Assembly (NCBI RefSeq): GCF_048403405.1
Contig: NZ_CP183131.1
From: Escherichia coli
GTDB lineage: Bacteria; Pseudomonadota; Gammaproteobacteria; Enterobacterales; Enterobacteriaceae
Length of the DNA: 64,000 bases
Strand: one strand, 5' to 3'
Positions 8,882-42,730 of this stretch are shown here, piece after piece; within the stretch, counting starts at the first letter, position 1; every line of letters begins with the position of its first letter. The translations under genes and the position numbers were made by a program. The notes below the pieces were generated by a model. That model was not told the DNA's origin. It searched no databases and saw only the letters and a program-made list of their open reading frames with translations.

Positions 8882-9078
8882 GGTGTTGCTCCTATGTAAA
8901 AAAACAGGGGCAACACCCGAAAACCGGGAGAAGCCCCCGGCTTGGGGTTAAGTAATGCCATACGGCATAAGACTAGATGCTGTTTGTTTTCGGAGACCAG
9001 CTATCTCACCTATAGCCGCAGAGCGACTAAGATGATTCAAATATAGCTCACCTTTGCTAAACAGAAAACGCTGTAACT

Positions 9079-9093
9079 GTCCATTTTGGGCAC
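9079..9093. promoter_or_regulatory. GCCCAWTTTGGRCA-type box (candidate AcaCD/SetCD-like activator site)
   Basis: GTCCATTTTGGGCAC preceded by CTGT; one of five similar boxes. Confidence 0.45.
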
Positions 9094-9174
9094 TTCGAGA
9101 GGTCAGGTTACAGATTGACCGCATTTATCCTTTCCAGTGCGTTTATCTGTACCTCAAATTTAGGAGTATCTCTA

Positions 9175-9816
9175 ATGGCAGAAGCACAAGTAGCACTGGA
9201 CACAAACAACGACCGCAGCAACCACTACTCTCGCCCTGTTTTCAAGCAAGTTCTGAAAGTAAACAGCCTCCAAGCTCAGCGCGTCATGGAACGCAGCTTT
9301 GAGCGAGTTTCCAACTCCCTGTTCTCCATCGACGTGATCCTTCGCATCATCGGTGAGCAGGACGAAATCGACCAGGTTGAAACCGTCATCCTGGAACACA
9401 TTTCCAAGGTCTCCGAAGACCTGGACAAAGCTACCGCCCAGCTCAACAAGCTGATGGAAGACAACGGCATCGACATGATGCCCGGCTACACCAACCCGAA
9501 TGAATACACCATCGAGATCAACTCTCCTCAGGTTGCTCAGTTTGCACACCTGATCCGCAAACTGGATACCCTGATGGGGATCGTTGACACTCTCTGGCTG
9601 AACACCGTACTGACCAGCAAGCAGCGCACCGACGCCACTTACCAATGGCAGCAACGCCTCATCAAGCTGGCCGGTCGAATCATCGGCATCGAGAAACGGG
9701 CTCGCATTTCCGCCCACAGCAAAGGCAAAGAAGGTGAAGTGGCCGAAGCCGCTCCGGAATCTGCAACCGGCGACAAGGAAATCGCAGACGAAGCCGAGAA
9801 AACAAAAGCAGCATAA
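9175..9816 (+). CDS. hypothetical protein (213 aa)
   Basis: AGGAG 8 nt before ATG at 9175 (ORF-track frame 9115..9816); followed by a terminator. Confidence 0.6.
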   Translation: MAEAQVALDTNNDRSNHYSRPVFKQVLKVNSLQAQRVMERSFERVSNSLFSIDVILRIIGEQDEIDQVETVILEHISKVSEDLDKATAQLNKLMEDNGIDMMPGYTNPNEYTIEINSPQVAQFAHLIRKLDTLMGIVDTLWLNTVLTSKQRTDATYQWQQRLIKLAGRIIGIEKRARISAHSKGKEGEVAEAAPESATGDKEIADEAEKTKAA

Positions 9817-9938: not shown

Positions 9939-10799
9939 ATGAAAAAGGCTTTAATCACCACCGTGGCTCTGGCTGTAGCAGCTCTATCTGGCTGTGCATC
10001 CACCAGCAGTTACGAACCCACAGCGTACAAAACCAATCACAGTCGCGCTTACAACATCGCGGAGGCCGGTGGCCTGGTAACAGGCATCCAAGACGCTTCT
10101 GTTCCGCGTGACAAGCTGGAGCGTCTGACCGACACCAAAACGTTTGGGGCAGCCTACGTGCTGTCTGGCTACATGTCCCCTCAGCTCGGAATGACCGACT
10201 GGCAAGGTGGCTTGGTCAACCTTGCGAACTGGGCTATCGGCCCCAAACAGCATGGCGCTCGCAATAGCTTGATCGCTTGGATGCCTGCTAACGAAGCAGT
10301 TTCACCGGCAGACGCTCAGGCCAAATTTCTTTCACATGTGAAAGTTTCCATTGAGTCAGCGCTGACTGATTTGGGTGCCAATTTCACGCTTCTGTATGAC
10401 AAAGATGGTCGCCTAACCTATCAGTTCTACAAGAATGAATGGGGTTGCCCGACGTGGGTGAACGGACAAAGTAAGGTAGCTGACATGTGTTCCGTTAAGG
10501 TGAAAATCGTGGAGCCTCGCCTAGGGTCAGCTCCTAATTTTGTCTCTGGCGTTCAAGGTACAGCGTATGCCTTCACATCAGGCCATGAGACCGCATACAA
10601 CTTTGTGAATGTCGGTAATGGGGCAGCAAGCCATGCTCCTCAGCAAGCGATCTACGCAGCTATTAGCAAACAGCTACCAGCTTGGGCCTACCTCTACCTT
10701 GCTCCAAAATCGGTTGAGCTGGATAATGGCGAAAAAGTTGCTTTCCCTTACCTTCTTGATCAGGGAAAAGCAGAGTTATTTGTTTACCCAGAAGCGTAA
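9939..10799 (+). CDS. lipoprotein (lipobox LSGC), function unknown
   Basis: MKKALITTVALAVAALSGCAS signal peptide. Confidence 0.65.
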   Translation: MKKALITTVALAVAALSGCASTSSYEPTAYKTNHSRAYNIAEAGGLVTGIQDASVPRDKLERLTDTKTFGAAYVLSGYMSPQLGMTDWQGGLVNLANWAIGPKQHGARNSLIAWMPANEAVSPADAQAKFLSHVKVSIESALTDLGANFTLLYDKDGRLTYQFYKNEWGCPTWVNGQSKVADMCSVKVKIVEPRLGSAPNFVSGVQGTAYAFTSGHETAYNFVNVGNGAASHAPQQAIYAAISKQLPAWAYLYLAPKSVELDNGEKVAFPYLLDQGKAELFVYPEA

Positions 10800-34163: not shown

Positions 34164-36029
34164 TTACTGGGTCAATATGGGCAGACGGCCTTTTACGATT
34201 GTTCCGCCTGAAATTTTGGCTATGTATTCCAGGTTCGGAAGCATTCCCAATAACTGGGCTGGGAACAGATCAGCTTCCTCCTCCATCAAACGCTCGCCTT
34301 GGTTGCCTCCGTGCATAATGGGCTCCTTGCCATCCGAGTTCTGGCCTTGAGTCCGCATGACGTACTTGAGCCGGGTCTTCGGCAGGTTATCCGCGATATA
34401 CTCCTGGGTTTCACCATCGACGATACGCAGAGCAAACGTGTTGTTGATGTTCCCCAACACCTGGAGCGCTTTGTCTTTGCTACCCAGTCGAGCTGCGAAG
34501 TCAGCAAAAGTCTGAGTTGCAACGAAAAGACGAAGTTTCGCACCGCGACCTTTGTTCAGGAGCTGGATGAACGGGTCGTTGATCACCTCGGCAGCCTCAT
34601 CAACAAAGATATTTACGGGTCTGTTGTTGACGCCGTAGTTGTATCTGTCACCGGCAACCGCTGTCAGGTCTGACAGGAAGATGGACCCCATAGCACTACC
34701 AACCATGTTGTCGGTCAGGGAGTCGAGCCCCAGATAAGCAACTTGAGCGTTGTTGATGATTTTTGCGGAATCGGTGATCTGGCGTTCGTCGCTCAGATCA
34801 GATGAGTCTGGAGACAGCAGAGGGCCTAGCTCCCCGGACGTCAGCATATTCATGATCGGCAGGAGGTTCGCCACCATCTTGGAGAAGTGGGTTTGGTCGT
34901 GCTGGAACATCGACAGCAAGCCTTCCAGGTCAGAGTTCGGGTGCTCAGGTTGGATGATGTCGTAGTAGAACTTCATCAACGCGAAAGCGATCTTCTCACG
35001 CGAACCGTTTTTGGCTTTTTCCAAGTAAGCCGCTGCTTCTGCCTCCCAGTCGGGCATAACTCGCTCTGAGTAAGCCTGAACGGCCTTGATGACCAAGCCA
35101 GCAGCGCCACCTTCAAGGAATCGGCGGAGCTTTGTCAGGTTGGGACGATCATGAGTGATGACCAAGCCCTGAGCGATGTTGTTCAGTGCCTGCCATCCAA
35201 ATGATTTGAACGGGTCGGCCCCTGCTTCGGACGGGATCAACGCTGCCAAACGACTTGCGATTTCAGTCACGCGGGTGAAGTTACGCAGAGGGTCGATACG
35301 CACCGACTCTTCCGGGAATGCTGGATGAAATGAGACGAATCTTTCCGGCTGCCCCATAGCTTCACAGGCACGTCGGGCATTGTCCCGCATCTCCTTATCC
35401 CCTTTCGGGTCTATGATGATCACGGCTTCCCCACGCAGAATGGCCTGTGAAATCAGGATGTCGAACATACGGGTCTTGCCCGAGCCGGTGGTCCCAACGA
35501 TCAGCGAATGCCCCTCAGTGTGCTTGAGTGGCTGCATCAGCTTCTCTTCTTTGGGCTCTACCCCGTGAATCCAGGGCTGGCCGATTGGCAGCTCCTTTTT
35601 CTTACCCTGTATCTTCCGGACAACCTTTTTGACCGTGGACTCTCTCCCTACGATGGAAGTCCAGTCGCGTTTCAGGATCTCAAACACGCGCTGGGCATGG
35701 CGGTTTTCCCACAGGAACCCACTACCAAGCCACATATCGTCCGGCGTGTCCTTGATGTACTTTTGGAGCTCCGCAATGGAAATAAACTCCAGATCACGCC
35801 CCTTCAAATGCTTTTGGAGCAGGTGAAGTTTGATAGCCTTGGGCAAACGAGCCATCGCCATCACGCCACAGATCCCCGTCATCCAATAGAATGGCTCCGG
35901 CGGCATCGTGCTGACTTGCTCTACGGCCAAAGCCGCGCCGGAGGCGGCAAGCCAGCCTGCTACAGCATTTTTTTCATAGTTGGGCCGCCACGGCATCTCG
36001 TAGGCGAGCGGGTCATAACTCATTGTCAT
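34164..36029 (-). CDS. traD: TraD/VirD4-family type IV coupling protein
   Basis: Walker A VGTTGSGKT; N-terminal TM helices; overlaps traI stop. Confidence 0.9.
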   Translation of the reverse strand: MTMSYDPLAYEMPWRPNYEKNAVAGWLAASGAALAVEQVSTMPPEPFYWMTGICGVMAMARLPKAIKLHLLQKHLKGRDLEFISIAELQKYIKDTPDDMWLGSGFLWENRHAQRVFEILKRDWTSIVGRESTVKKVVRKIQGKKKELPIGQPWIHGVEPKEEKLMQPLKHTEGHSLIVGTTGSGKTRMFDILISQAILRGEAVIIIDPKGDKEMRDNARRACEAMGQPERFVSFHPAFPEESVRIDPLRNFTRVTEIASRLAALIPSEAGADPFKSFGWQALNNIAQGLVITHDRPNLTKLRRFLEGGAAGLVIKAVQAYSERVMPDWEAEAAAYLEKAKNGSREKIAFALMKFYYDIIQPEHPNSDLEGLLSMFQHDQTHFSKMVANLLPIMNMLTSGELGPLLSPDSSDLSDERQITDSAKIINNAQVAYLGLDSLTDNMVGSAMGSIFLSDLTAVAGDRYNYGVNNRPVNIFVDEAAEVINDPFIQLLNKGRGAKLRLFVATQTFADFAARLGSKDKALQVLGNINNTFALRIVDGETQEYIADNLPKTRLKYVMRTQGQNSDGKEPIMHGGNQGERLMEEEADLFPAQLLGMLPNLEYIAKISGGTIVKGRLPILTQ

Positions 36030-39004
36030 GTTTCATTTACCTCTAAATACAATTTTCCCTGACGTTTCTTGAGCAAAGGGCGTCTCTGTGCCCGGCTCAG
36101 CATCCCGCAGAGGATGTGTTTGCTGATGCCGATGTTTTCACCGGCAATCATGTCGAAGGCTTTGTCACTGGTTACTAAGCAGCCATCCTCTTCCAGGACA
36201 GGTGTCACGAGCCATCGGCCCGAGCGTTTTTGGATCATGTCCTTGAGCATCTGGAGTGCTTTCTGAGGCGTAACACCAGACGGCAAGAAATCTTCCGCGT
36301 TGATGTCTTTCGGGTTTGTTTTCGCCTTAGGCGGCTCAAACTCCCTAACCTCTGGATCTTCCCTTTCTCGCACCTCGACGTGTCCCAATTCCTTCTCACG
36401 CTCAACTTTGGGCTCAGGAGCCACCGGTTGAGCCTCCCGCTTAGGAAGGCGAGCCACGTTCTGTTTTTCTTGGACCGGCTTGCGCTGTTGCTCTTCAACC
36501 GGAGAAGTAACATCGACCTTCTTCTCCTTCGGCTGTGGCTGGGAGTCCTTACCTTTCGCCTTTTGTTCAGGCGAGGCTTTACCGGCATTAACCTCAGGCT
36601 TCTGCTGCTGCGCCTTTTTTCGGCTTTGTTGTTTCGGTGCAGACTTATTTTTGCTTGCATCCAAGCCAGGGGGAGAGACGAGCTCAAAGGCATCCTGGTA
36701 TCCACCCATTGACGCCTCGGCATCCTTAATGGCCGCCACGACTGCATCTGAAAGCTGCTCCGCCAGTACAATTGCCTTCACTCCGCTGAAATCACGAACT
36801 TTGCGACCTGGCATAATCGGGTCCGGAACAATCGCGTTGGCGTGGGACAGCTTCGAGAGAACCTCTGACGGCGCACCCAGCGACCGAGCGCCATCCGGGT
36901 ACAAAATGACGGCTTGCCCCTTCATCAGGCATAGGACTTCGCCCAGCGTCGTTTTACCTTCCAAAACAGGCATGATCGCTTGTTCAAGCAACGCCGATGC
37001 TTCCCCGTATCCAGACAACATCTCAACGAGCAAGGTCTTTGCGTCCTTCTCATGCTGATTAACGTTGTCCGTATGCGGCATTTCTGGCGTGTGCGTTGGT
37101 TGTTCTGGTGCGTCAGTCAGCATAGGGAGCGGCTCAATCGCCCATGATGGCGGTTCATCAGAACCACCGAACATTGGAAAGTCATCGCCCTGCAGGGAGT
37201 TTTGTTCTTGTGGAACGAAGTCCTGTTTTGGCTGCTCCTCTTGCTTTCCGGGCATTGCCACATCTGGGATTTCTGAGTTTGTTGCGTCAGTGCTGGTTGT
37301 CTCTGCCGATGCGTTGAATGCGTCAAACGGGAAGTCGATGTCCCCCAGTCCACCCCCAACATCCTTGAGTGCTTGTAACGGATTGTCGTTTGCCAAAGGT
37401 GGTGCGTTTTTGGCAATGTCCTGAGGGGACAGATCCTCTTTTGCCTCTGGTTTATGGGGTTGTTTCTCCGTATCACTCTTCGGTTTTGCTTTGCCCGGTT
37501 TGCTCTGCGGCTTACCCTTCTTGCCAGCGTCAGGCTTAGATGATTCCGTTGGTCCCGCATCTTTTTGCTCTGGCTTCTCCTCGACAGCATCGGAGGTGCT
37601 TTTCAGCATCTCCATCGCATCACCAAAGCCAAGGCCAGCTAGAGCTTTCTCTGCTTCCTGCTCTGCGGCCAACATGTCATCGTTCAGAGCTGCTTCACCT
37701 TCCTCTTGGTCGTCACCGTCATCGGCTTCCTCAGGATCAACGAACTCAATCTCAGCGTCCTCAACATCACCAACAACTTCCGCAGCAACAGCCGCAGGAG
37801 GCTCAGTCGTAAACACCAGGTCGTTTGATTCGAGTCGGAGCATCAAGATCTTCACCGAACCCGCCGCCTCCTGGAGCATCTCAGGCAAAACTTCCCAGTA
37901 GCGGTAGTACGCACGTTCACCCTTCTCCTGCACCGTGTTTGGTACAGCAAAACCACGTTCGATGAGAATGTCGGCCAGTGTGTCAGGGTCTCGTGGGATA
38001 CCGGGGATCTTGTCGTGGCTGATCAAGTCATAAAGGTCCCCAAGCTGTTTCCAGGCAATGAATACACCTTGGTTGAGGTGCCAGACTTTCGCGCCTGGCT
38101 CATTGACCTTCCATTTTCCGGTTTTAACCAGGCGGCGGATGGCATCGAACACGTAACGCTCGACGGGCACACCATAGGAGAACTCGTCCACATCGAGACG
38201 ACTCTGGCGAAGGTCCCGTGAGACGCTCTCTTGGTCAGCGCGAAGCATCAGCTTGGTCACAGGCTGATTGACGCTGGTTCCTGAGATAGCTTCCAGCATC
38301 GCTTCCATGATGGACGGGCCAGACTTGGACAGAAACTCCCGAGTCTCAGCCGGAATAATTCGATCCACCGCCAGCAGCGAGAATTGCTCATGTCTTTTGT
38401 GTCGCTTGTCGCGCCACCGGATAAAGTAACGGTCGATTTCGTGACGGTGTGCCCAGTCATGAAGTGACTCCGAATACGGGTTCCATGTGATTGACCCGTC
38501 TTTGTCCGTAATGGACACATCCGAGAGCGGTTTACCCACATCATGCAGCAGCCCAGAGAAACAGCTCGCCAGTCTCCAACGCGGCTCATTGTCACGGCGT
38601 TCCCGAGGCGTCCCCTCGATGGAAAAGATAACTGACTCAGATGCCTGAGCTGCCCAGAAGGCCACTTCAAGCCCATGTCGGAACAGACCACCAGCGCCAC
38701 GGTGGTGGTGTGATTCGGAAGCTGGCAACAGGTGAACAAACGCGGCATACCGCTGGATCACCGGCAAAACAAGCCGGTTGAAGTCGTCCACAGTGAAACC
38801 GAGAGAGTTCCGCACTTTCTCAATCAGTTCAGCTTGGGTTGCCAGTATCTTGTCTAGTGGGGCCACTGGCAGGCCCTTGGCAAAAGGTGGGTATCGAGGG
38901 ATTTCTTCATCTTCCACGTCTTTAAGCGGCAACACTCTGGCGCTCGGCGCGGTCTCGATCACTCCACTTCGCCCACCAAATAACTTGTTAAGGGCTTTCA
39001 GCAT
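36026..39004 (-). CDS. traI: MOBH-family relaxase TraI (HD-domain)
   Basis: 992 aa; HD motifs HHHRGAGGLFRHGLEV and GLLHDVGKP; low-complexity K/P/E/Q-rich C-terminal region; followed by traD. Confidence 0.85.
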   Translation of the reverse strand: MLKALNKLFGGRSGVIETAPSARVLPLKDVEDEEIPRYPPFAKGLPVAPLDKILATQAELIEKVRNSLGFTVDDFNRLVLPVIQRYAAFVHLLPASESHHHRGAGGLFRHGLEVAFWAAQASESVIFSIEGTPRERRDNEPRWRLASCFSGLLHDVGKPLSDVSITDKDGSITWNPYSESLHDWAHRHEIDRYFIRWRDKRHKRHEQFSLLAVDRIIPAETREFLSKSGPSIMEAMLEAISGTSVNQPVTKLMLRADQESVSRDLRQSRLDVDEFSYGVPVERYVFDAIRRLVKTGKWKVNEPGAKVWHLNQGVFIAWKQLGDLYDLISHDKIPGIPRDPDTLADILIERGFAVPNTVQEKGERAYYRYWEVLPEMLQEAAGSVKILMLRLESNDLVFTTEPPAAVAAEVVGDVEDAEIEFVDPEEADDGDDQEEGEAALNDDMLAAEQEAEKALAGLGFGDAMEMLKSTSDAVEEKPEQKDAGPTESSKPDAGKKGKPQSKPGKAKPKSDTEKQPHKPEAKEDLSPQDIAKNAPPLANDNPLQALKDVGGGLGDIDFPFDAFNASAETTSTDATNSEIPDVAMPGKQEEQPKQDFVPQEQNSLQGDDFPMFGGSDEPPSWAIEPLPMLTDAPEQPTHTPEMPHTDNVNQHEKDAKTLLVEMLSGYGEASALLEQAIMPVLEGKTTLGEVLCLMKGQAVILYPDGARSLGAPSEVLSKLSHANAIVPDPIMPGRKVRDFSGVKAIVLAEQLSDAVVAAIKDAEASMGGYQDAFELVSPPGLDASKNKSAPKQQSRKKAQQQKPEVNAGKASPEQKAKGKDSQPQPKEKKVDVTSPVEEQQRKPVQEKQNVARLPKREAQPVAPEPKVEREKELGHVEVREREDPEVREFEPPKAKTNPKDINAEDFLPSGVTPQKALQMLKDMIQKRSGRWLVTPVLEEDGCLVTSDKAFDMIAGENIGISKHILCGMLSRAQRRPLLKKRQGKLYLEVNET

Positions 39005-39084
39005 GTAGGTTGACCATATTCCTATCGTATTTCTCGTCGCTACATGCTCTCAAAACACCTTTAGATCGCACACACGCCTATCTG

Positions 39085-39099
39085 TCCAATTTGGGCAGT
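39085..39099. promoter_or_regulatory. GCCCAWTTTGGRCA-type box ~81 bp upstream of traI, in divergent intergenic region
   Basis: GTCCAATTTGGGCAG preceded by CTGT. Confidence 0.5.
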
Positions 39100-39171
39100 T
39101 TGAGAAACCAGCTTTCCATCCCCCCCCTTTTAGAATGGGCTCATCGACAATTTTTGATGAGGAACGACACG

Positions 39172-39789
39172 ATGAGACAACTGATAGCAATTCTGGGAGT
39201 GGCAATTCTGGCCGGGTGTGCCTCTAACGCCCCCGAGCAAAAGCCTCAGCCCCAGACTGCCCCTGCCGAAAATGACAAACCTGCCCGAGTTAGCCGGGAA
39301 CTGTCGATGGCATGGGACAACATGGGGCGCGGTGGTGCTGCATTACGTCAACCTGGTTATATCCATGTGCTGGGCGACGGTAATGTCAGCGCAACGATGA
39401 ACAAGGTCAAAGATGACTCCGCTGGTTCAGATAAAACTCCAGCAGGGATCAAGCAGCACGGGGATGTGAACGAAGCCATCAATACCTTCAAGTCCATGAA
39501 TAAAGGCAAAGGCTACTCGCTGTACGAGTTGTCACGCTGGGAACGCTATTGCGATGGCGGCAAAGGTATGGACGAGCACGATTGGCGCTTTGTGGAAGCC
39601 GAGGGGACTACAAACATCCCCAAGGATGTTGTAACCGGCTGCATACCACCTACCCACACCTATCAAGATTATCTGAATGCCTGGACGCACTTTTGCACCA
39701 GCCAGGCTGTAACTGACGCAGATCGCCGCATTGTGCGCGAGTCCGTGCGTCCCTATTCAGTGGTGAACCCATGCAAAGCTCTGAAATAA
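39172..39789 (+). CDS. lipoprotein (lipobox LAGCAS), function unknown
   Basis: ATG at ~39172 gives MRQLIAILGVAILAGCASN; ORF-track frame extends upstream. Confidence 0.65.
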   Translation: MRQLIAILGVAILAGCASNAPEQKPQPQTAPAENDKPARVSRELSMAWDNMGRGGAALRQPGYIHVLGDGNVSATMNKVKDDSAGSDKTPAGIKQHGDVNEAINTFKSMNKGKGYSLYELSRWERYCDGGKGMDEHDWRFVEAEGTTNIPKDVVTGCIPPTHTYQDYLNAWTHFCTSQAVTDADRRIVRESVRPYSVVNPCKALK

Positions 39790-40004
39790 GAAACCAGACA
39801 GAGCCAAGCCGTAAGGCTGAGCTCTTCGACGCTTTATCAATCATGCTCCAGGAGGCCGGTTCGAGGGGTAATTCCCGCGAAGCGGCCTATGTCATTTCTG
39901 GAGTCCTCGAAAACCTCTCCAGAGACTACCCCGAAGTCAAAGGTCTGGCCCAAAGCTGGGCTGAGCTGGCGAATCTGGAATCAAAGATGAGAGGAGCTGC
40001 TTAA
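39771..40004 (+). CDS. hypothetical small protein (77 aa), stop overlaps topB start
   Basis: TAATG junction with topB. Confidence 0.45.
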   Translation: MQSSEIRNQTEPSRKAELFDALSIMLQEAGSRGNSREAAYVISGVLENLSRDYPEVKGLAQSWAELANLESKMRGAA

Positions 40005-42196
40005 TGGACCTTTATATCTGCGAGAAGCCTTCTCAGGCCAAAGATTTGGCTGGCGTAATGAAGGCCTCCCAACGAGGTGATGGATTTCTCCATGATGGAG
40101 GAAACCGCGTTATTACGTGGGCGTTCGGCCACCTGCTGGAATTGTATATGCCAGACGATTATGACGAACGCTACAAGTCATGGTCACTGGAGACCCTCCC
40201 TATTGCACCAGAGTCATGGCGGTACAACGTTCGCAAGAGTGCGTTCAAACAGTACAAAATTGTTGAGGGACTGGTCAAAAAGGCGAGCACCATCTACATC
40301 TCAACGGACTACGACCGAGAAGGTGAGGCTATCGCCCGTTCGCTTCTGGATCGATTCCGCTACTCTGGCCCTATTCGCCGGGTTTGTTTGACGGCTCTCG
40401 ATGAGTCAAGCATCAAGAAAGCGCTGAACAACGTAAAGGATGGCAAGGATACGGTCTCACTCTACTACGCCGCATTGGCACGGCAACGCGCTGACTGGTT
40501 GGTAGGCATGAACGTGAGCCGCCTCTACACAGTGCTGGCCCGAGATGTCGGCTTCAACCACACTCTTCACGTTGGCAGGGTTATCACCCCAACCGTCGCT
40601 CTTGTTTGTCAACGGGACCGAGAGATCGCCGGTTTCACCCCCTCACCATACTGGACTCTGGGTGTGAACGTGTCCGTACAGAATGGACAGTTTGCCGCCC
40701 AATGGATACCACCAGAAGAGTGCAGTGACGAGCAAGGCCGGTGCGTCAATAAGGCCTATGCCGAGCAGGTAGCCTCCCAGGTCAATGGTGCCAATGCTGT
40801 TATCAGCAAAGCAGAAACCAAACCAGGTAAAGAGTCAGCCCCCCTCCCCTTCGATCTAACGTCGCTGCAACAATACGCAAGCAAACGATGGGGATACACC
40901 GCTCAGCAGGTACTGGATGCAGCTCAAGCTCTGTACGAGACGCACAAAGCGACCACCTACCCTCGTACTGATAGTCGTTATCTACCCGAGAGCCAAAAGG
41001 AAGACATTCCGGACATTCTCCAGGCGCTCATTTTGTCCGATCAGAACGTCTCTGGGCTGGTGGCTGGCGCAGATCCTCATCGCAAGGCCAGGGTATTCAA
41101 TGACGCCAAAGTGACCGCGCACCACGCGATCATTCCAACACCGGCCAGAACAGACATCAGTGCCATGTCTGAGATCGAGTTCAATCTTTACGACGCCATC
41201 CGTCGTTTCTACATCGCGCAGTTCTACAGCGAGTTCGAGTTCACCAAAACCTCCATCGAGGTGCAGTGTGGGCGTCACCTCTTTGCGGCCTCTGGTAAGA
41301 CACCTGCCAAACAAGGCTGGAAGGTTTTGTTTGCTTCTGATAGTGAAAGCAGTCCCAAGGACGAGGGGGAAGACACCGACGCGCCGGTTGAACAAGAGAA
41401 GCTCCCCAGGGTTAGCCAGGGCGAACCCGCTTTGCTTAATGGTGCCGAGCTGGCAAACAAAATGACGCGGCCAGCACCGCACTTCACCGAAGCCACATTG
41501 CTTGCCGCGATGGAGAACATTGCCCGGTTCGTGACTGAGGAGAAGTTCAAGCAAATTCTCAAAGACACAGCCGGTTTAGGCACTCCAGCAACACGCGCAA
41601 GCATCATCCAGGGCGCTGTTGATAAAGGCTACTTCAAACGTCAGAAAAAGGTACTGCTTGCAACTGATAAGGCTCATGCGCTTATCGCAGTGCTTCCACC
41701 AGCCATCAAATCACCCGGCATGACTGCGGCTTGGGAGCAGGAGCTTGAGAAAGTCGCCTCCGGCTCCGGGAATATGTCTGTCTTCATGAAGCAGATTTCC
41801 ACCTGGATCTGCCAAATGGTTGAGCAGCTCAAAGTGCCCGCACCGGTTCTGACCAAAGAAGGTGGCGCGATGGCTAAAGCCTTCGAGGGCGCTAAGCCGC
41901 CTTCACACGAATGCTTCAACTGCGGTGGAGAGATGCACCGGATCAAAGGGAAGAACGGATTTTTCTGGGGCTGCCAGAACGAGGCTTGCAAGAAGACGTT
42001 CCCAGACAACCGAGGGAAACCCGAGAAGCGTATCGCGGCTGAGGATTGTCCAGACTGCCCAGATTGCGGTAGCCCGATGCGTCTCAGGAAAGGAAAAGCG
42101 CCCGGCAAGAAGCGAGCTTCTAAGTTCTGGGGCTGCACCGCCTATCCCGATTGCAAAGGCACTATGCCCTTCAAAAAGTCGGACTTTATGGATTGA
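40004..42196 (+). CDS. topB: DNA topoisomerase III (type IA) with C-terminal zinc ribbons
   Basis: TOPRIM N-terminus MDLYICEKPSQAKDLAGV; C-terminal CxxC...CxxC ribbons. Confidence 0.9.
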   Translation: MDLYICEKPSQAKDLAGVMKASQRGDGFLHDGGNRVITWAFGHLLELYMPDDYDERYKSWSLETLPIAPESWRYNVRKSAFKQYKIVEGLVKKASTIYISTDYDREGEAIARSLLDRFRYSGPIRRVCLTALDESSIKKALNNVKDGKDTVSLYYAALARQRADWLVGMNVSRLYTVLARDVGFNHTLHVGRVITPTVALVCQRDREIAGFTPSPYWTLGVNVSVQNGQFAAQWIPPEECSDEQGRCVNKAYAEQVASQVNGANAVISKAETKPGKESAPLPFDLTSLQQYASKRWGYTAQQVLDAAQALYETHKATTYPRTDSRYLPESQKEDIPDILQALILSDQNVSGLVAGADPHRKARVFNDAKVTAHHAIIPTPARTDISAMSEIEFNLYDAIRRFYIAQFYSEFEFTKTSIEVQCGRHLFAASGKTPAKQGWKVLFASDSESSPKDEGEDTDAPVEQEKLPRVSQGEPALLNGAELANKMTRPAPHFTEATLLAAMENIARFVTEEKFKQILKDTAGLGTPATRASIIQGAVDKGYFKRQKKVLLATDKAHALIAVLPPAIKSPGMTAAWEQELEKVASGSGNMSVFMKQISTWICQMVEQLKVPAPVLTKEGGAMAKAFEGAKPPSHECFNCGGEMHRIKGKNGFFWGCQNEACKKTFPDNRGKPEKRIAAEDCPDCPDCGSPMRLRKGKAPGKKRASKFWGCTAYPDCKGTMPFKKSDFMD

Positions 42197-42210: not shown

Positions 42211-42699
42211 ATGTTTGGAACAATCATTTTAACTGCGATGCTCACCACCAGCTCAGCCACTGCCGAAGATGCAGGGAAGAACATCGCCTCAGGCTTGGCG
42301 GCGGCATCCGCCAGCCAAATGGGGCAGGCCGTAATGCCAACTTTAGCTACCAGCTCGGCCATTGCAAAAAGCGCAGGTAAAGGCATGGTGTCAGGTTTGG
42401 CTGCGGCGACTGCCAGCTACATTCCCCAAGACGAGCTGAGCTTTACTCGAAGCTATAAGAACTCTGAGGCTGTGGATATGGCAAAGGGCCTGGGGACATT
42501 GAAAGAAGCGCCTGAGTTTCTCTACGTTGTTACAGACGTAAATGCCAACATGGCGGTCAAATGCAAGCGCGTCTGGGAGCCTCAATCTCTGGCTTTAAGT
42601 CCAGTGATTGTTGAGCTGGTGGAACTACGTAAGACGAACAACAAAGACAGCTACGAACAAGCACTATCCCACCTCGATTGTTCAATGTTCACAGACTAA
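42211..42699 (+). CDS. hypothetical secreted protein with Ala/Ser-rich repeats
   Basis: GAGGAA RBS; signal peptide MFGTIILTAMLTTSSATA. Confidence 0.55.
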   Translation: MFGTIILTAMLTTSSATAEDAGKNIASGLAAASASQMGQAVMPTLATSSAIAKSAGKGMVSGLAAATASYIPQDELSFTRSYKNSEAVDMAKGLGTLKEAPEFLYVVTDVNANMAVKCKRVWEPQSLALSPVIVELVELRKTNNKDSYEQALSHLDCSMFTD

Positions 42700-42708
42700 A
42701 ACAATTAA

Positions 42709-42730
42709 GGGGCCGATGGCCCCTAATTTT
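42709..42730. terminator. terminator hairpin (GGGGCCGATGGCCCC + T-run) between convergent operons
   Basis: GC hairpin followed by TAATTTTT. Confidence 0.7.

Follow-up and report, generated by a model that had tools for sequence, protein, structure and literature searches.

The 77-aa ORF and the topoisomerase gene topB that follows it are the two middle genes of a four-gene operon of IncC plasmids, vcrx059-vcrx058-vcrx057(topB)-vcrx056 of pVCR94. The IncC topB operon is already known and is largely ordinary, with one uncharacterised small protein family within it. Judged from its conservation at the sequence level, the small ORF is a real conserved gene and is presumably translated. The observations as a whole are probably explained by an AcaCD-controlled operon in which TopB acts on transfer intermediates and the small protein is a general accessory of the operon.

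The window, i.e. the whole stretch of 64,000 nucleotides analysed, is IncC plasmid backbone and is 100% identical to many sequenced IncC plasmids; 992 plasmid records matched the query, 961 of them with a query coverage of at least 80%. The operon diverges from traI (Table 1). The distance from the start of traI to that of topB is exactly 1,000 bp, and traD lies beyond traI, so that the earlier note correctly placed the topoisomerase gene approximately 1 kb from the relaxase and coupling-protein genes. The probable terminator hairpin begins 9 nt past the stop codon of the fourth gene and closes the operon. The upstream lipoprotein gene, as well as the fourth gene and the hairpin terminator that complete the operon, were absent from the earlier note. 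In pVCR94, the lengths of vcrx059-vcrx056 (618, 234, 2193, and 489 nt, respectively), their order and orientation, and the 167-nt gap to traI are the same as here; judged from coordinates and lengths, nothing material differs between the two operons, which represent practically the same locus. Functions were named for none of these four genes in the description of pVCR94 (Carraro et al. 2014, PMC4207636). The possibility of an RNA element or a repeat in the region was rejected, as matches in an Rfam search were far below the gathering scores and a repeat search returned no meaningful repeats. An oriT near traI is ruled out by the experiments of Hegyi 2017, in which an oriT near traI or topB was excluded.

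Table 1. Features of the vcrx059-vcrx056 operon and its divergent neighbours (positions in the window)
Feature	Position	Strand	Basis
traD	34164-36029		next after traI
traI (MOBH relaxase), divergent neighbour	36026-39004	-	992-aa ORF; Pfam TraI_2 1.8e-88; mobH/TraI annotation in plasmid records
Overlapping divergent AcaCD-binding boxes (predicted), PtraI and operon promoter	39074-39107		coordinates carried over from pVCR94 Table S3
Operon transcription start (putative)	39142-39144	+	coordinate transfer; same offset from ATG 39172 assumed
Lipoprotein gene (vcrx059 homologue, 205 aa)	39172-39789	+	CDS annotation in CP012668
Small ORF (vcrx058 homologue, 77 aa)	39771-40004	+	ATG 39771 to TAA 40002-40004
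topB (vcrx057 homologue, 730 aa)	40004-42196	+	ATG 40004 to TGA 42196; Pfam
Fourth gene (vcrx056 homologue, 162 aa)	42211-42699	+	CDS annotation in plasmid record
Probable bidirectional terminator, GC-rich hairpin AGGGGCCGATGGCCCCT, T-runs on both strands	42708-42724		terminator scan

A ChIP-exo peak, AcaCD motifs, a 5'-RACE start, and a predicted operon vcrx059-vcrx056 have been reported for pVCR94, where the motifs are located at 35010-35038 and 35015-35043 (Table S3 of that study) and the transcription start at 34973-34975, 28-30 nt before the start codon of vcrx059 (Carraro 2014, PMC4207636). The two operons agree in every gene length and in the 167-nt intergenic distance, and these coordinates were transferred to the window. 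Within the transferred motif coordinates, at 39082-39098, the predicted AcaCD boxes have the palindromic core CTGTCCAATTTGGGCAG, which is similar to published boxes, e.g. AAACTGTCCTGATTGGGCATTTT; the box pattern occurs three times in the window, compared with 0.21 occurrences expected by chance. A predicted AcaCD-binding box is thus present at the published distance 5' of the first gene of the operon. The expression values of vcrx059, vcrx058, vcrx057, and vcrx056 were 12, 24, 131, and 14 in wild-type pVCR94, zero for all four genes upon deletion of acaCD, and 297, 484, 854, and 180, respectively, upon complementation (Carraro 2014, PMC4207636). In later work, a lacZ fusion was constructed with the promoter P_vcrx059. 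The AcaCD-dependent promoter of the operon appears to have activator boxes that overlap those of the divergent relaxase promoter PtraI, so the operon would remain off before activation of the transfer regulon and would then be expressed together with the relaxase, coupling-protein, and pilus genes. Such co-induction with the transfer genes has been demonstrated in pVCR94, which has the identical gene arrangement (Carraro 2014, PMC4207636).

The first gene encodes a protein with the N-terminus MRQLIAILGVAILAGC, which contains a Sec/SPII-type signal with the lipobox LAGC. The lipobox is followed by a low-confidence linker and a Cys-containing helical C-terminal domain; only residues ~112-202 (the C-terminal ~90) are modelled by AF2 with pLDDT values of 75-92. 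Residues W123, E124, R125, C127, C157, and C175 are invariant in 11 relatives, and the protein has no Pfam match and its model no PDB match. A 259-aa ORF starting from TTG 39010 was rejected as an over-extension, as this start precedes the mapped transcription start. The product of the fourth gene contains an N-terminal signal-like sequence, is predicted to be secreted, and has no match in Pfam, NCBIfam, or PADLOC. This gene is fast evolving, accounting for 58 of the 102 differences in the operon between two IncC lineages, and its slot is occupied by unrelated genes in pVPH1 and in a Pseudoalteromonas plasmid, indicating that it is replaceable.

The small ORF overlaps the 3' end of the lipoprotein gene by 19 nt, its ATG falling in ...AACCCATGCAAAGC..., which corresponds to the NPCKA codons of the latter. 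As the earlier note stated, the stop codon of the 77-aa ORF overlaps the topoisomerase start: the two share one base (TAATG) at the junction GCTTAATGGAC, and the topB Shine-Dalgarno sequence, AGGAG, is located inside the last codons of the small ORF. With the small ORF starting in the end of the lipoprotein gene and stopping on the start of topB, the four frames appear to be packed for coupled translation. A programmed frameshift that would join the small ORF and TopB into one protein was rejected, as the sequence lacks a slippery site, the N-terminus of TopB aligns with E. coli TopB from residue 1, and elsewhere the junction takes other forms (TAAATG in pVPH1, a gap of 38 nt in a further relative, L017).

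TopB consists of a type IA topoisomerase core (residues 1-615) and two C4 zinc ribbons (about 640-730). The description of its gene as encoding a full-length type IA topoisomerase with zinc ribbons is confirmed by matches to Pfam Toprim (2.7e-13), Topoisom_bac (PF01131, 1.3e-108), and two stretches of Zn_ribbon_Top1 (7.3e-13), and by scores above the cut-offs of the NCBIfam models TIGR01056 (topB; 680.4 bits, cut-off 515.75) and NF005829 (768.8, cut-off 597); its score against the topA_bact model (227.5) is below the cut-off of 456.4. It aligns with E. coli Topo III structures with E=1e-128 and 39% identity over 602 aligned residues. The Toprim residues E7, D102, D104, and E106 align with E. 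coli E7, D103, D105, and E107, respectively, and the catalytic Y319, in the motif TYPR, and R321 align with Y328 and R330. The stretch ARFVTEEKFKQILKDTAGLGT aligns without gaps to the region of the Topo III-specific decatenation loop of the E. coli enzyme (residues about 502-519). On sequence grounds, the plasmid topB product is thus a bona fide Topo III-type enzyme. A PADLOC match of TopB to DpdF covers only the common topoisomerase core of the 1499-position model and was not taken as a defence-system assignment.

The 77-aa protein has a pI of 5.05 and no signal sequence, and its AF2 model is a three-helix bundle with a mean pLDDT of 83.7. Conservation in relatives, proposed in the earlier note as the check on this ORF, was found: a profile search of the vcrx058-like family yielded 44 clusters at E<=1e-3 (22 at E<=1e-10), with homologues of 62-123 aa down to 25-40% identity, and the gene order recurs in distant plasmids. 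A tblastn search detected the ORF in 1018 plasmid records, including versions with 59, 43, and 37% identity at the same position. E28 and A29 are invariant in the alignments, L26, R32, V41, and L46 are at least 90% conserved, and the 77-aa protein carries the family signature h-x-ML-x-EA-x-x-R ... VI-x-G-x-L ... W/F-x-x-L (60-120 aa). Conserved residues 15-24 rule out a 53-aa annotation of the ORF. In comparison with the distant plasmid pAsmA, for which synonymous sites are saturated, dN/dS is 0.14-0.15 and the split of non-synonymous and synonymous changes departs from neutrality (p=2e-5). Among close relatives, the non-synonymous:synonymous counts (5:1 and 11:5) do not differ from neutral, and no claim of positive selection is made. 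The earlier suggestion that the ORF is simply upstream read-through is therefore contradicted by conservation at the protein level, by long-range purifying selection, and by the existing annotation of the gene in GenBank records and its name vcrx058 in pVCR94. No domain was identified in Pfam, NCBIfam, PHROGs, or PADLOC, a member-by-member Pfam scan of 38 vcrx058-like members at E<=5 returned nothing, and the family has no relative in PDB. Based on these predictions, the product would be a real protein of the cytoplasm, mildly acidic and folded into three helices, that most likely acts by binding another protein.

The gene neighbourhoods bear on what it would bind. The small gene lies between lipoprotein and DNA enzyme genes divergent from a TraI_2 relaxase gene, with one exception in the upstream gene (L012, see below). 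In most sampled contexts TopB is directly downstream, and in PLSDB the small ORF is present in 1018 records and this TopB clade (at least 60% identity) in 1023, i.e. almost 1:1; the approximately 4000 further TopB relatives listed from plasmids came without a detectable homologue of the small ORF, and no such homologue was detected outside the IncC-like clade by tblastn of the plasmid database or by profile search. This co-occurrence, together with the stop/start overlap and internal topB Shine-Dalgarno sequence, which a comparison of junctions found to be kept in six plasmids, would favour a dedicated partner of this TopB clade, which could form part of the enzyme as a stoichiometric subunit, assist it as a chaperone, or act as an inhibitor to restrain or target this DNA-cleaving enzyme; the TAATG overlap may then ensure matched synthesis of the two proteins. 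However, in three independent metagenomic or genomic relatives (L010, L015/16, and L024/25) the gene that follows the lipoprotein-small pair encodes not TopB but a predicted nuclease with DUF1173; in L010 and L015, the pair is also divergent from a TraI_2 relaxase gene. The small proteins intermix by sequence across the two contexts, one TopB-context member being 45-49% identical to two DUF1173-context members. Moreover, two TonB_2 genes separate the small gene from topB in L012, the gap of 38 nt intervenes in L017, and the rate of evolution is far higher for the small protein than for TopB (Fisher p=0.002 and 3e-6). A dedicated partner is accordingly unlikely. Because DUF1173 replaces TopB behind the same pair in the three relatives, the small protein is probably not TopB-specific, which weakens the idea, raised by the accessory factor of the earlier note, that it assists Topo III in particular; as far as these sequence comparisons indicate, it is more likely a general accessory of the relaxase-divergent operon than a dedicated topoisomerase subunit, and the lipoprotein-small pair would front a DNA-processing enzyme, which is TopB or, in some relatives, the DUF1173 predicted nuclease.

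As a Topo III-type enzyme, TopB would pass strands via single-strand breaks. Its most likely role, by analogy with the homologous E. coli Topo III and in view of the co-regulation, is decatenation: it would unlink or unknot nicked, gapped, and single-stranded plasmid forms arising from conjugative processing and also from replacement or complementary-strand synthesis, and would be helpful but not essential. Natural disruptions of topB in some plasmids, by ISKpn18 in a K. pneumoniae IncC plasmid (three records) and by a split of the gene in an Edwardsiella plasmid, show that plasmid maintenance does not require it, which partly answers the question of whether its deletion is neutral, raised in the earlier note as a refuting observation. 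To our knowledge, the SXT/R391 elements, which have a related transfer system, contain no topB, and the enzyme is therefore not required by such transfer machinery. In the paper library searched, no literature on the function of vcrx057 or vcrx058 in IncC plasmids was found. The earlier proposal had left open whether a plasmid-borne Topo III helps to resolve replication or transfer intermediates; the link to transfer gains support from the published AcaCD dependence, the operon being silent without AcaCD. A role in vegetative replication and segregation instead, i.e. daughter-plasmid decatenation and stability, is rather improbable. Decatenation of replication products is an established activity of E. 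coli Topo III, type IA topoisomerases are found in at least 5000 PLSDB records of many kinds (4360 predicted conjugative and 319 non-mobilizable), and a decayed chromosomal element in Xenorhabdus retains an intact lipoprotein-small-TopB trio despite its broken traI and traD; yet the acaCD deletion plasmid still replicates at zero expression of the operon, induction accompanies the transfer genes, and topB-disrupted plasmids persist in clinical isolates.

Still less probable is a partnership of the small protein with the upstream lipoprotein, e.g. in lipoprotein biogenesis or in a donor envelope or mating function, TopB being a mere passenger on the transcript. A lipoprotein-like gene is located directly 5' of the small gene in all relatives examined except L012, and overlaps its start in every case, whichever enzyme follows. 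However, the lipoprotein is presumably exported, given its signal and lipobox, while no such signal is present in the small protein; the upstream gene in L012 encodes a different, TonB_2-domain protein, and overlaps between adjacent genes are common and need not imply interaction.

More speculative, and to be given little weight, is the idea that the vcrx058 family represents a new adaptor class of MOBH elements that passes the enzyme encoded directly downstream to the relaxase/coupling-protein machinery, with Topo III and a PD-(D/E)XK-like nuclease of the DUF1173 type being interchangeable in this place. If so, the conserved lipoprotein-small pair would serve as a 'dock' for exchangeable enzyme cargoes, and export of the enzyme to the recipient might occur in the manner of VirE1/VirE2. 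No sequence or fold similarity of the small protein to VirE1 or to known chaperone or immunity (Im-like) proteins was found, and a secretion chaperone or immunity-type partner was not adopted. That the small ORF is a non-functional by-product, untranslated or a meaningless frame between real genes, is effectively refuted, since the lack of a known domain and the near-neutral substitutions among close IncC/IncA lineages are outweighed by protein conservation across the 44 clusters, a dN/dS of about 0.15, the conserved signature, and a confident fold prediction.

IncC plasmids rank among the main vehicles of multidrug resistance, and any gene of the AcaCD transfer regulon might offer a handle on how they spread. 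As the locus has already been mapped and annotated and plasmid Topo III genes are very common, the finding adds little alone; the exchange of TopB and the nuclease behind one gene pair hints at a slot for an auxiliary DNA-processing enzyme of conjugation.

In Agrobacterium, the gene for VirE1, a small acidic helical chaperone, is directly upstream of that for its DNA-binding client VirE2 in a type IV secretion system. The arrangement of vcrx058 before topB resembles it by analogy only, in that a small acidic helical protein is encoded upstream of a DNA-acting protein. Other plasmid type IA topoisomerases (RP4 TraE, IncX topB, and others) are likewise Topo III homologues on conjugative plasmids, but they are only 30-40% identical to IncC TopB and differ in neighbours and regulation; RP4 TraE is an active Topo III that is not known to be required for transfer. 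E. coli Topo III (TopB; PDB 1D6M and 1I7D) shares the acidic, Tyr, and decatenation-loop positions with the plasmid TopB. In contrast to the short C-terminal tail of the E. coli enzyme, the plasmid TopB has ~115 residues with two Topo I-type C4 zinc ribbons and, unlike its E. coli counterpart, is plasmid-borne and controlled by a transfer activator.

A 3.7-kb query around the small ORF and topB matched 992 plasmid records; in 961 the match spans 80% or more of the query length, and hundreds of records are 100% identical. The records inspected were typed as IncC with a MOBH relaxase and MPF_F mating-pair formation, nearly all matching plasmids are predicted to be conjugative, and they come from hosts such as Klebsiella, Salmonella, Escherichia, and Vibrio. 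The window is thus an IncC (IncA/C2) plasmid backbone. In the GenBank annotation of an identical plasmid, four consecutive plus-strand genes run divergently from traI (see the table). The 77-codon ORF described in the earlier note, with its stop codon overlapping the topB start (TAATG), was exact to the base in both the ORF table and the sequence, and the spacing of about 1 kb between the topoisomerase and the relaxase and coupling-protein genes could be sharpened: the traI and topB starts lie exactly 1,000 bp apart, with traI and traD on the other strand. The first gene of the operon was absent from that note. Its product has a lipoprotein-type N-terminus (MRQLIAILGVAILAGC), and its true start is ATG 39172, just preceded by GAGGAA; a 259-aa ORF from TTG 39010 (extension 39010-39171) is over-extended, as transcription, according to the published start site, begins only downstream of this TTG.

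The fourth gene encodes a product with a signal-peptide-like N-terminus and is hypervariable. Between the window and the IncC plasmid pSH696_135, 58 of the 102 nucleotide differences in the operon fall inside its 489 nt, the majority being amino-acid-changing, and in pVPH1 and a Pseudoalteromonas plasmid its slot is held by unrelated genes. Diversifying pressure on an exported protein could account for this hypervariability.

Features of the topB operon region in the window and of the related loci compared
Feature	Location	Strand	Source or remark
traD, coupling-protein gene	34164-36029	minus	upstream of small ORF, beside traI
traI, relaxase (TraI_2 family)	36026-39004	minus	Pfam/ORF table; upstream of small ORF
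AcaCD boxes	39074-39107		transferred coordinates
Operon transcription start	~39142-39144		transferred coordinates
Lipoprotein gene, 205 aa (annotated hypothetical protein)	39172-39789	plus	GenBank annotation
Small ORF, 77 aa	39771-40004	plus	ATG 39771, TAA 40002-40004; ORF table and raw sequence
topB, DNA topoisomerase III, 730 codons	40004-42196	plus	ATG 40004; ORF table and raw sequence
Fourth gene, 162 aa (annotated hypothetical protein)	42211-42699	plus	GenBank annotation
GC-rich hairpin with T-runs on both strands, closing the operon	42708-42724		terminator scan
Lipoprotein-small-DUF1173 loci	L010 6001-7535; L015 1688-2801; L024 736-1617		
Split topB	L019 5183-7375		NZ_CP035669.1
ISKpn18-disrupted topB	L021 2505-6003		NZ_CP024522.1

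The small ORF is a real, conserved gene. It was found by tblastn in 1018 plasmid records, and more diverged versions (59% identical in an Aeromonas plasmid, 43% in pVPH1 of V. parahaemolyticus, and 37% in a Pseudoalteromonas plasmid) likewise lie between a lipoprotein gene and topB, divergent from mobH. Searching 1.84 billion representatives with a profile yielded 44 clusters at E<=1e-3 (22 at E<=1e-10), with lengths of 62-123 aa among the matches listed; E28 and A29 are invariant in the family alignment, with conservation of 90% or more at L26, R32, V41, and L46. Conservation thus extends to the relatives in which the earlier note had proposed to look for it, and its suggestion of upstream read-through is not supported, in view of this protein-level conservation and of a dN/dS of 0.14-0.15 against the Aeromonas plasmid, a comparison in which synonymous sites are saturated and 32 of the 62 changes are non-synonymous, off the neutral expectation (p=2e-5). 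Over shorter distances the pattern looks neutral (non-synonymous to synonymous changes of 5:1 between two IncC lineages and 11:5 between IncC and IncA), no positive selection is claimed, and topB is under much stronger constraint than the small ORF (Fisher p=0.002 and 3e-6). Residues 15-24 are conserved, and the gene therefore starts at ATG 39771, which rules out the 53-aa short form given by some annotators. With a pI of 5.05 the protein is slightly acidic, it carries no signal sequence, and AlphaFold2 predicts with confidence (mean pLDDT 83.7) that it folds as a three-helix bundle; no relatives were found in Pfam, NCBIfam, PHROG, PADLOC, or PDB by sequence, profile, or fold.

The ATG of the small ORF lies 19 nt inside the 3' end of the lipoprotein gene. 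In six plasmids it falls within the lipoprotein NPCKA codons (ccATGCAAAGC, giving a conserved MQS start) after GGTGA, and an AGGAG-type Shine-Dalgarno sequence for topB occupies the last small-ORF codons, followed by TAATG (TAAATG in pVPH1). Such junctions are classical for operon genes that overlap, and would permit coupled translation. A frameshift fusion of the small ORF with TopB is excluded, because the alignment of TopB to its E. coli counterpart begins at residue 1 and because the junction is variable.

The 730-aa product belongs to the topoisomerase III (TopB) family. It is full-length, as the earlier note had it, with Pfam Toprim and Topoisom_bac domains and two Topo I-type C4 zinc ribbons. 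Residues 1-615 match E. coli Topo III structures (E=1e-128, 39% identity), the Toprim residues E7, D102, D104, and E106 and the catalytic Y319 (TYPR) are conserved, the region matching the decatenation loop is conserved in a gap-free alignment, and the protein scores over the NCBIfam topB thresholds and under those of topA.

In pVCR94 these four genes are known as vcrx059, vcrx058, vcrx057, and vcrx056; neither their lengths nor the 167 nt that separate the first of them from traI differ. In that plasmid, Carraro et al. 2014 (PMC4207636) predicted vcrx059-vcrx056 as an operon, located a ChIP-exo peak for AcaCD, the activator of the transfer genes, between vcrx059 and traI with two overlapping motifs in opposite orientation, and mapped start sites for both genes by 5'-RACE. 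Their RNA-seq values for the four genes, in the above order, were all 0 in an acaCD deletion, 297/484/854/180 after complementation, and 12/24/131/14 in the wild type. The literature thus establishes, for an arrangement identical to that of the window, AcaCD-dependent co-expression with transfer genes, the activator boxes being common to the operon promoter and PtraI, the divergent relaxase promoter. The boxes and start site were placed in the window by coordinate transfer from pVCR94; the transferred region contains a palindromic core, CTGTCCAATTTGGGCAG, which resembles the boxes printed in PMC4207636 and has 3 matches in the window against 0.21 expected. A second box-like sequence, CTGTCCATTTTGGGCAC, is found at 9077-9093 and departs from the traI/vcrx059 core at two positions. 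Downstream of it, on the plus strand, are two ORFs (9115-9816 and 9939-10799), the second of which encodes 286 aa, the length reported for the surface-exclusion lipoprotein Sfx. In the RNA-seq data (Dataset S1), topB exceeds the two genes upstream of it both in the wild type and upon induction, for which an internal promoter or differential mRNA stability could be responsible. The vcrx059 promoter was cloned as a lacZ fusion in a later study, and Hegyi et al. 2017 ruled out an oriT in an 11.6-kb stretch that surrounds traI and takes in the topoisomerase gene; our literature search found no functional account of vcrx057 or vcrx058.

A homologous lipoprotein gene stands directly upstream of the small ORF in all relatives but one, and in three independent relatives (loci L010/L011, L015/L016, and L024/L025) the lipoprotein-small pair is followed by a gene for a DUF1173 protein, a predicted PD-(D/E)XK nuclease (PMC3045609), not TopB; a divergent TraI_2 relaxase gene is visible in L010 and L015. 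The enzyme downstream of the small ORF has been swapped within a subclade, since P0057, a small protein encoded beside TopB, shares 45-49% identity with two DUF1173-context members and is nearer to them than to any other TopB-context member. Given the DUF1173 contexts, the kinship of P0057, and the near-constant upstream gene, we rank a putative role of the small protein as a protein-binding accessory that serves the relaxase-divergent operon in general above that of a dedicated Topo III subunit. The latter role is favoured by the near one-to-one co-occurrence in the plasmid database (1018 records for the small ORF and 1023 for TopB at 60% identity or higher), by the position of TopB next to the small ORF in most sampled metagenomic contexts, and by the lack of a detectable small ORF for about 4000 more distant plasmid TopBs among the matches listed. 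In the exceptional metagenomic locus L012 (1184-5675), a 492-aa TonB_2-domain protein takes the upstream place of the lipoprotein gene, and the small ORF is followed by two more TonB_2-domain genes and only then by TopB; this atypical arrangement hints at an envelope connection.

Natural disruptions of topB are found in one 221.6-kb K. pneumoniae IncC plasmid, carrying ISKpn18 inside the gene in three records (rectal, CSF, and blood isolates), and in Edwardsiella piscicida pEP-MS-18-199, where the gene is broken into two ORFs of 471 and 253 aa. These disruptions, together with the zero expression in the replicating acaCD mutant, argue that TopB is dispensable for plasmid maintenance. A decayed, integrated IncA/C-like element (L022) is present in the Xenorhabdus nematophila ATCC 19061 chromosome (FN667742.1, 2307396-2327629), with traI in several ORFs and traD truncated beside an IS, but with the lipoprotein (205 aa), small ORF (77 aa), and TopB (728 aa) all intact, which slightly favours a transfer-independent benefit, unless the decay is simply recent.

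TopB probably acts as an auxiliary, rather than essential, enzyme that resolves links or knots in the nicked, gapped, or single-stranded plasmid DNA arising from conjugative processing and strand synthesis, and the small protein would bind, in the cytoplasm, one of the components of the conjugative operon system. The remaining value lies in this uncharacterised small-protein family and in the exchange of TopB and DUF1173, which suggest that MOBH-type conjugative elements have a slot for an auxiliary DNA-processing enzyme. The operon itself is already known, having been annotated, named, and mapped as AcaCD-regulated, and plasmid Topo III genes are commonplace: plasmid-borne type IA topoisomerases occur in at least 5000 records by tblastn, with 4360 predicted conjugative among the matches listed. 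The IncC TopB differs from the chromosomal E. coli enzyme in its C-terminus, the plasmid enzyme carrying its two zinc ribbons.
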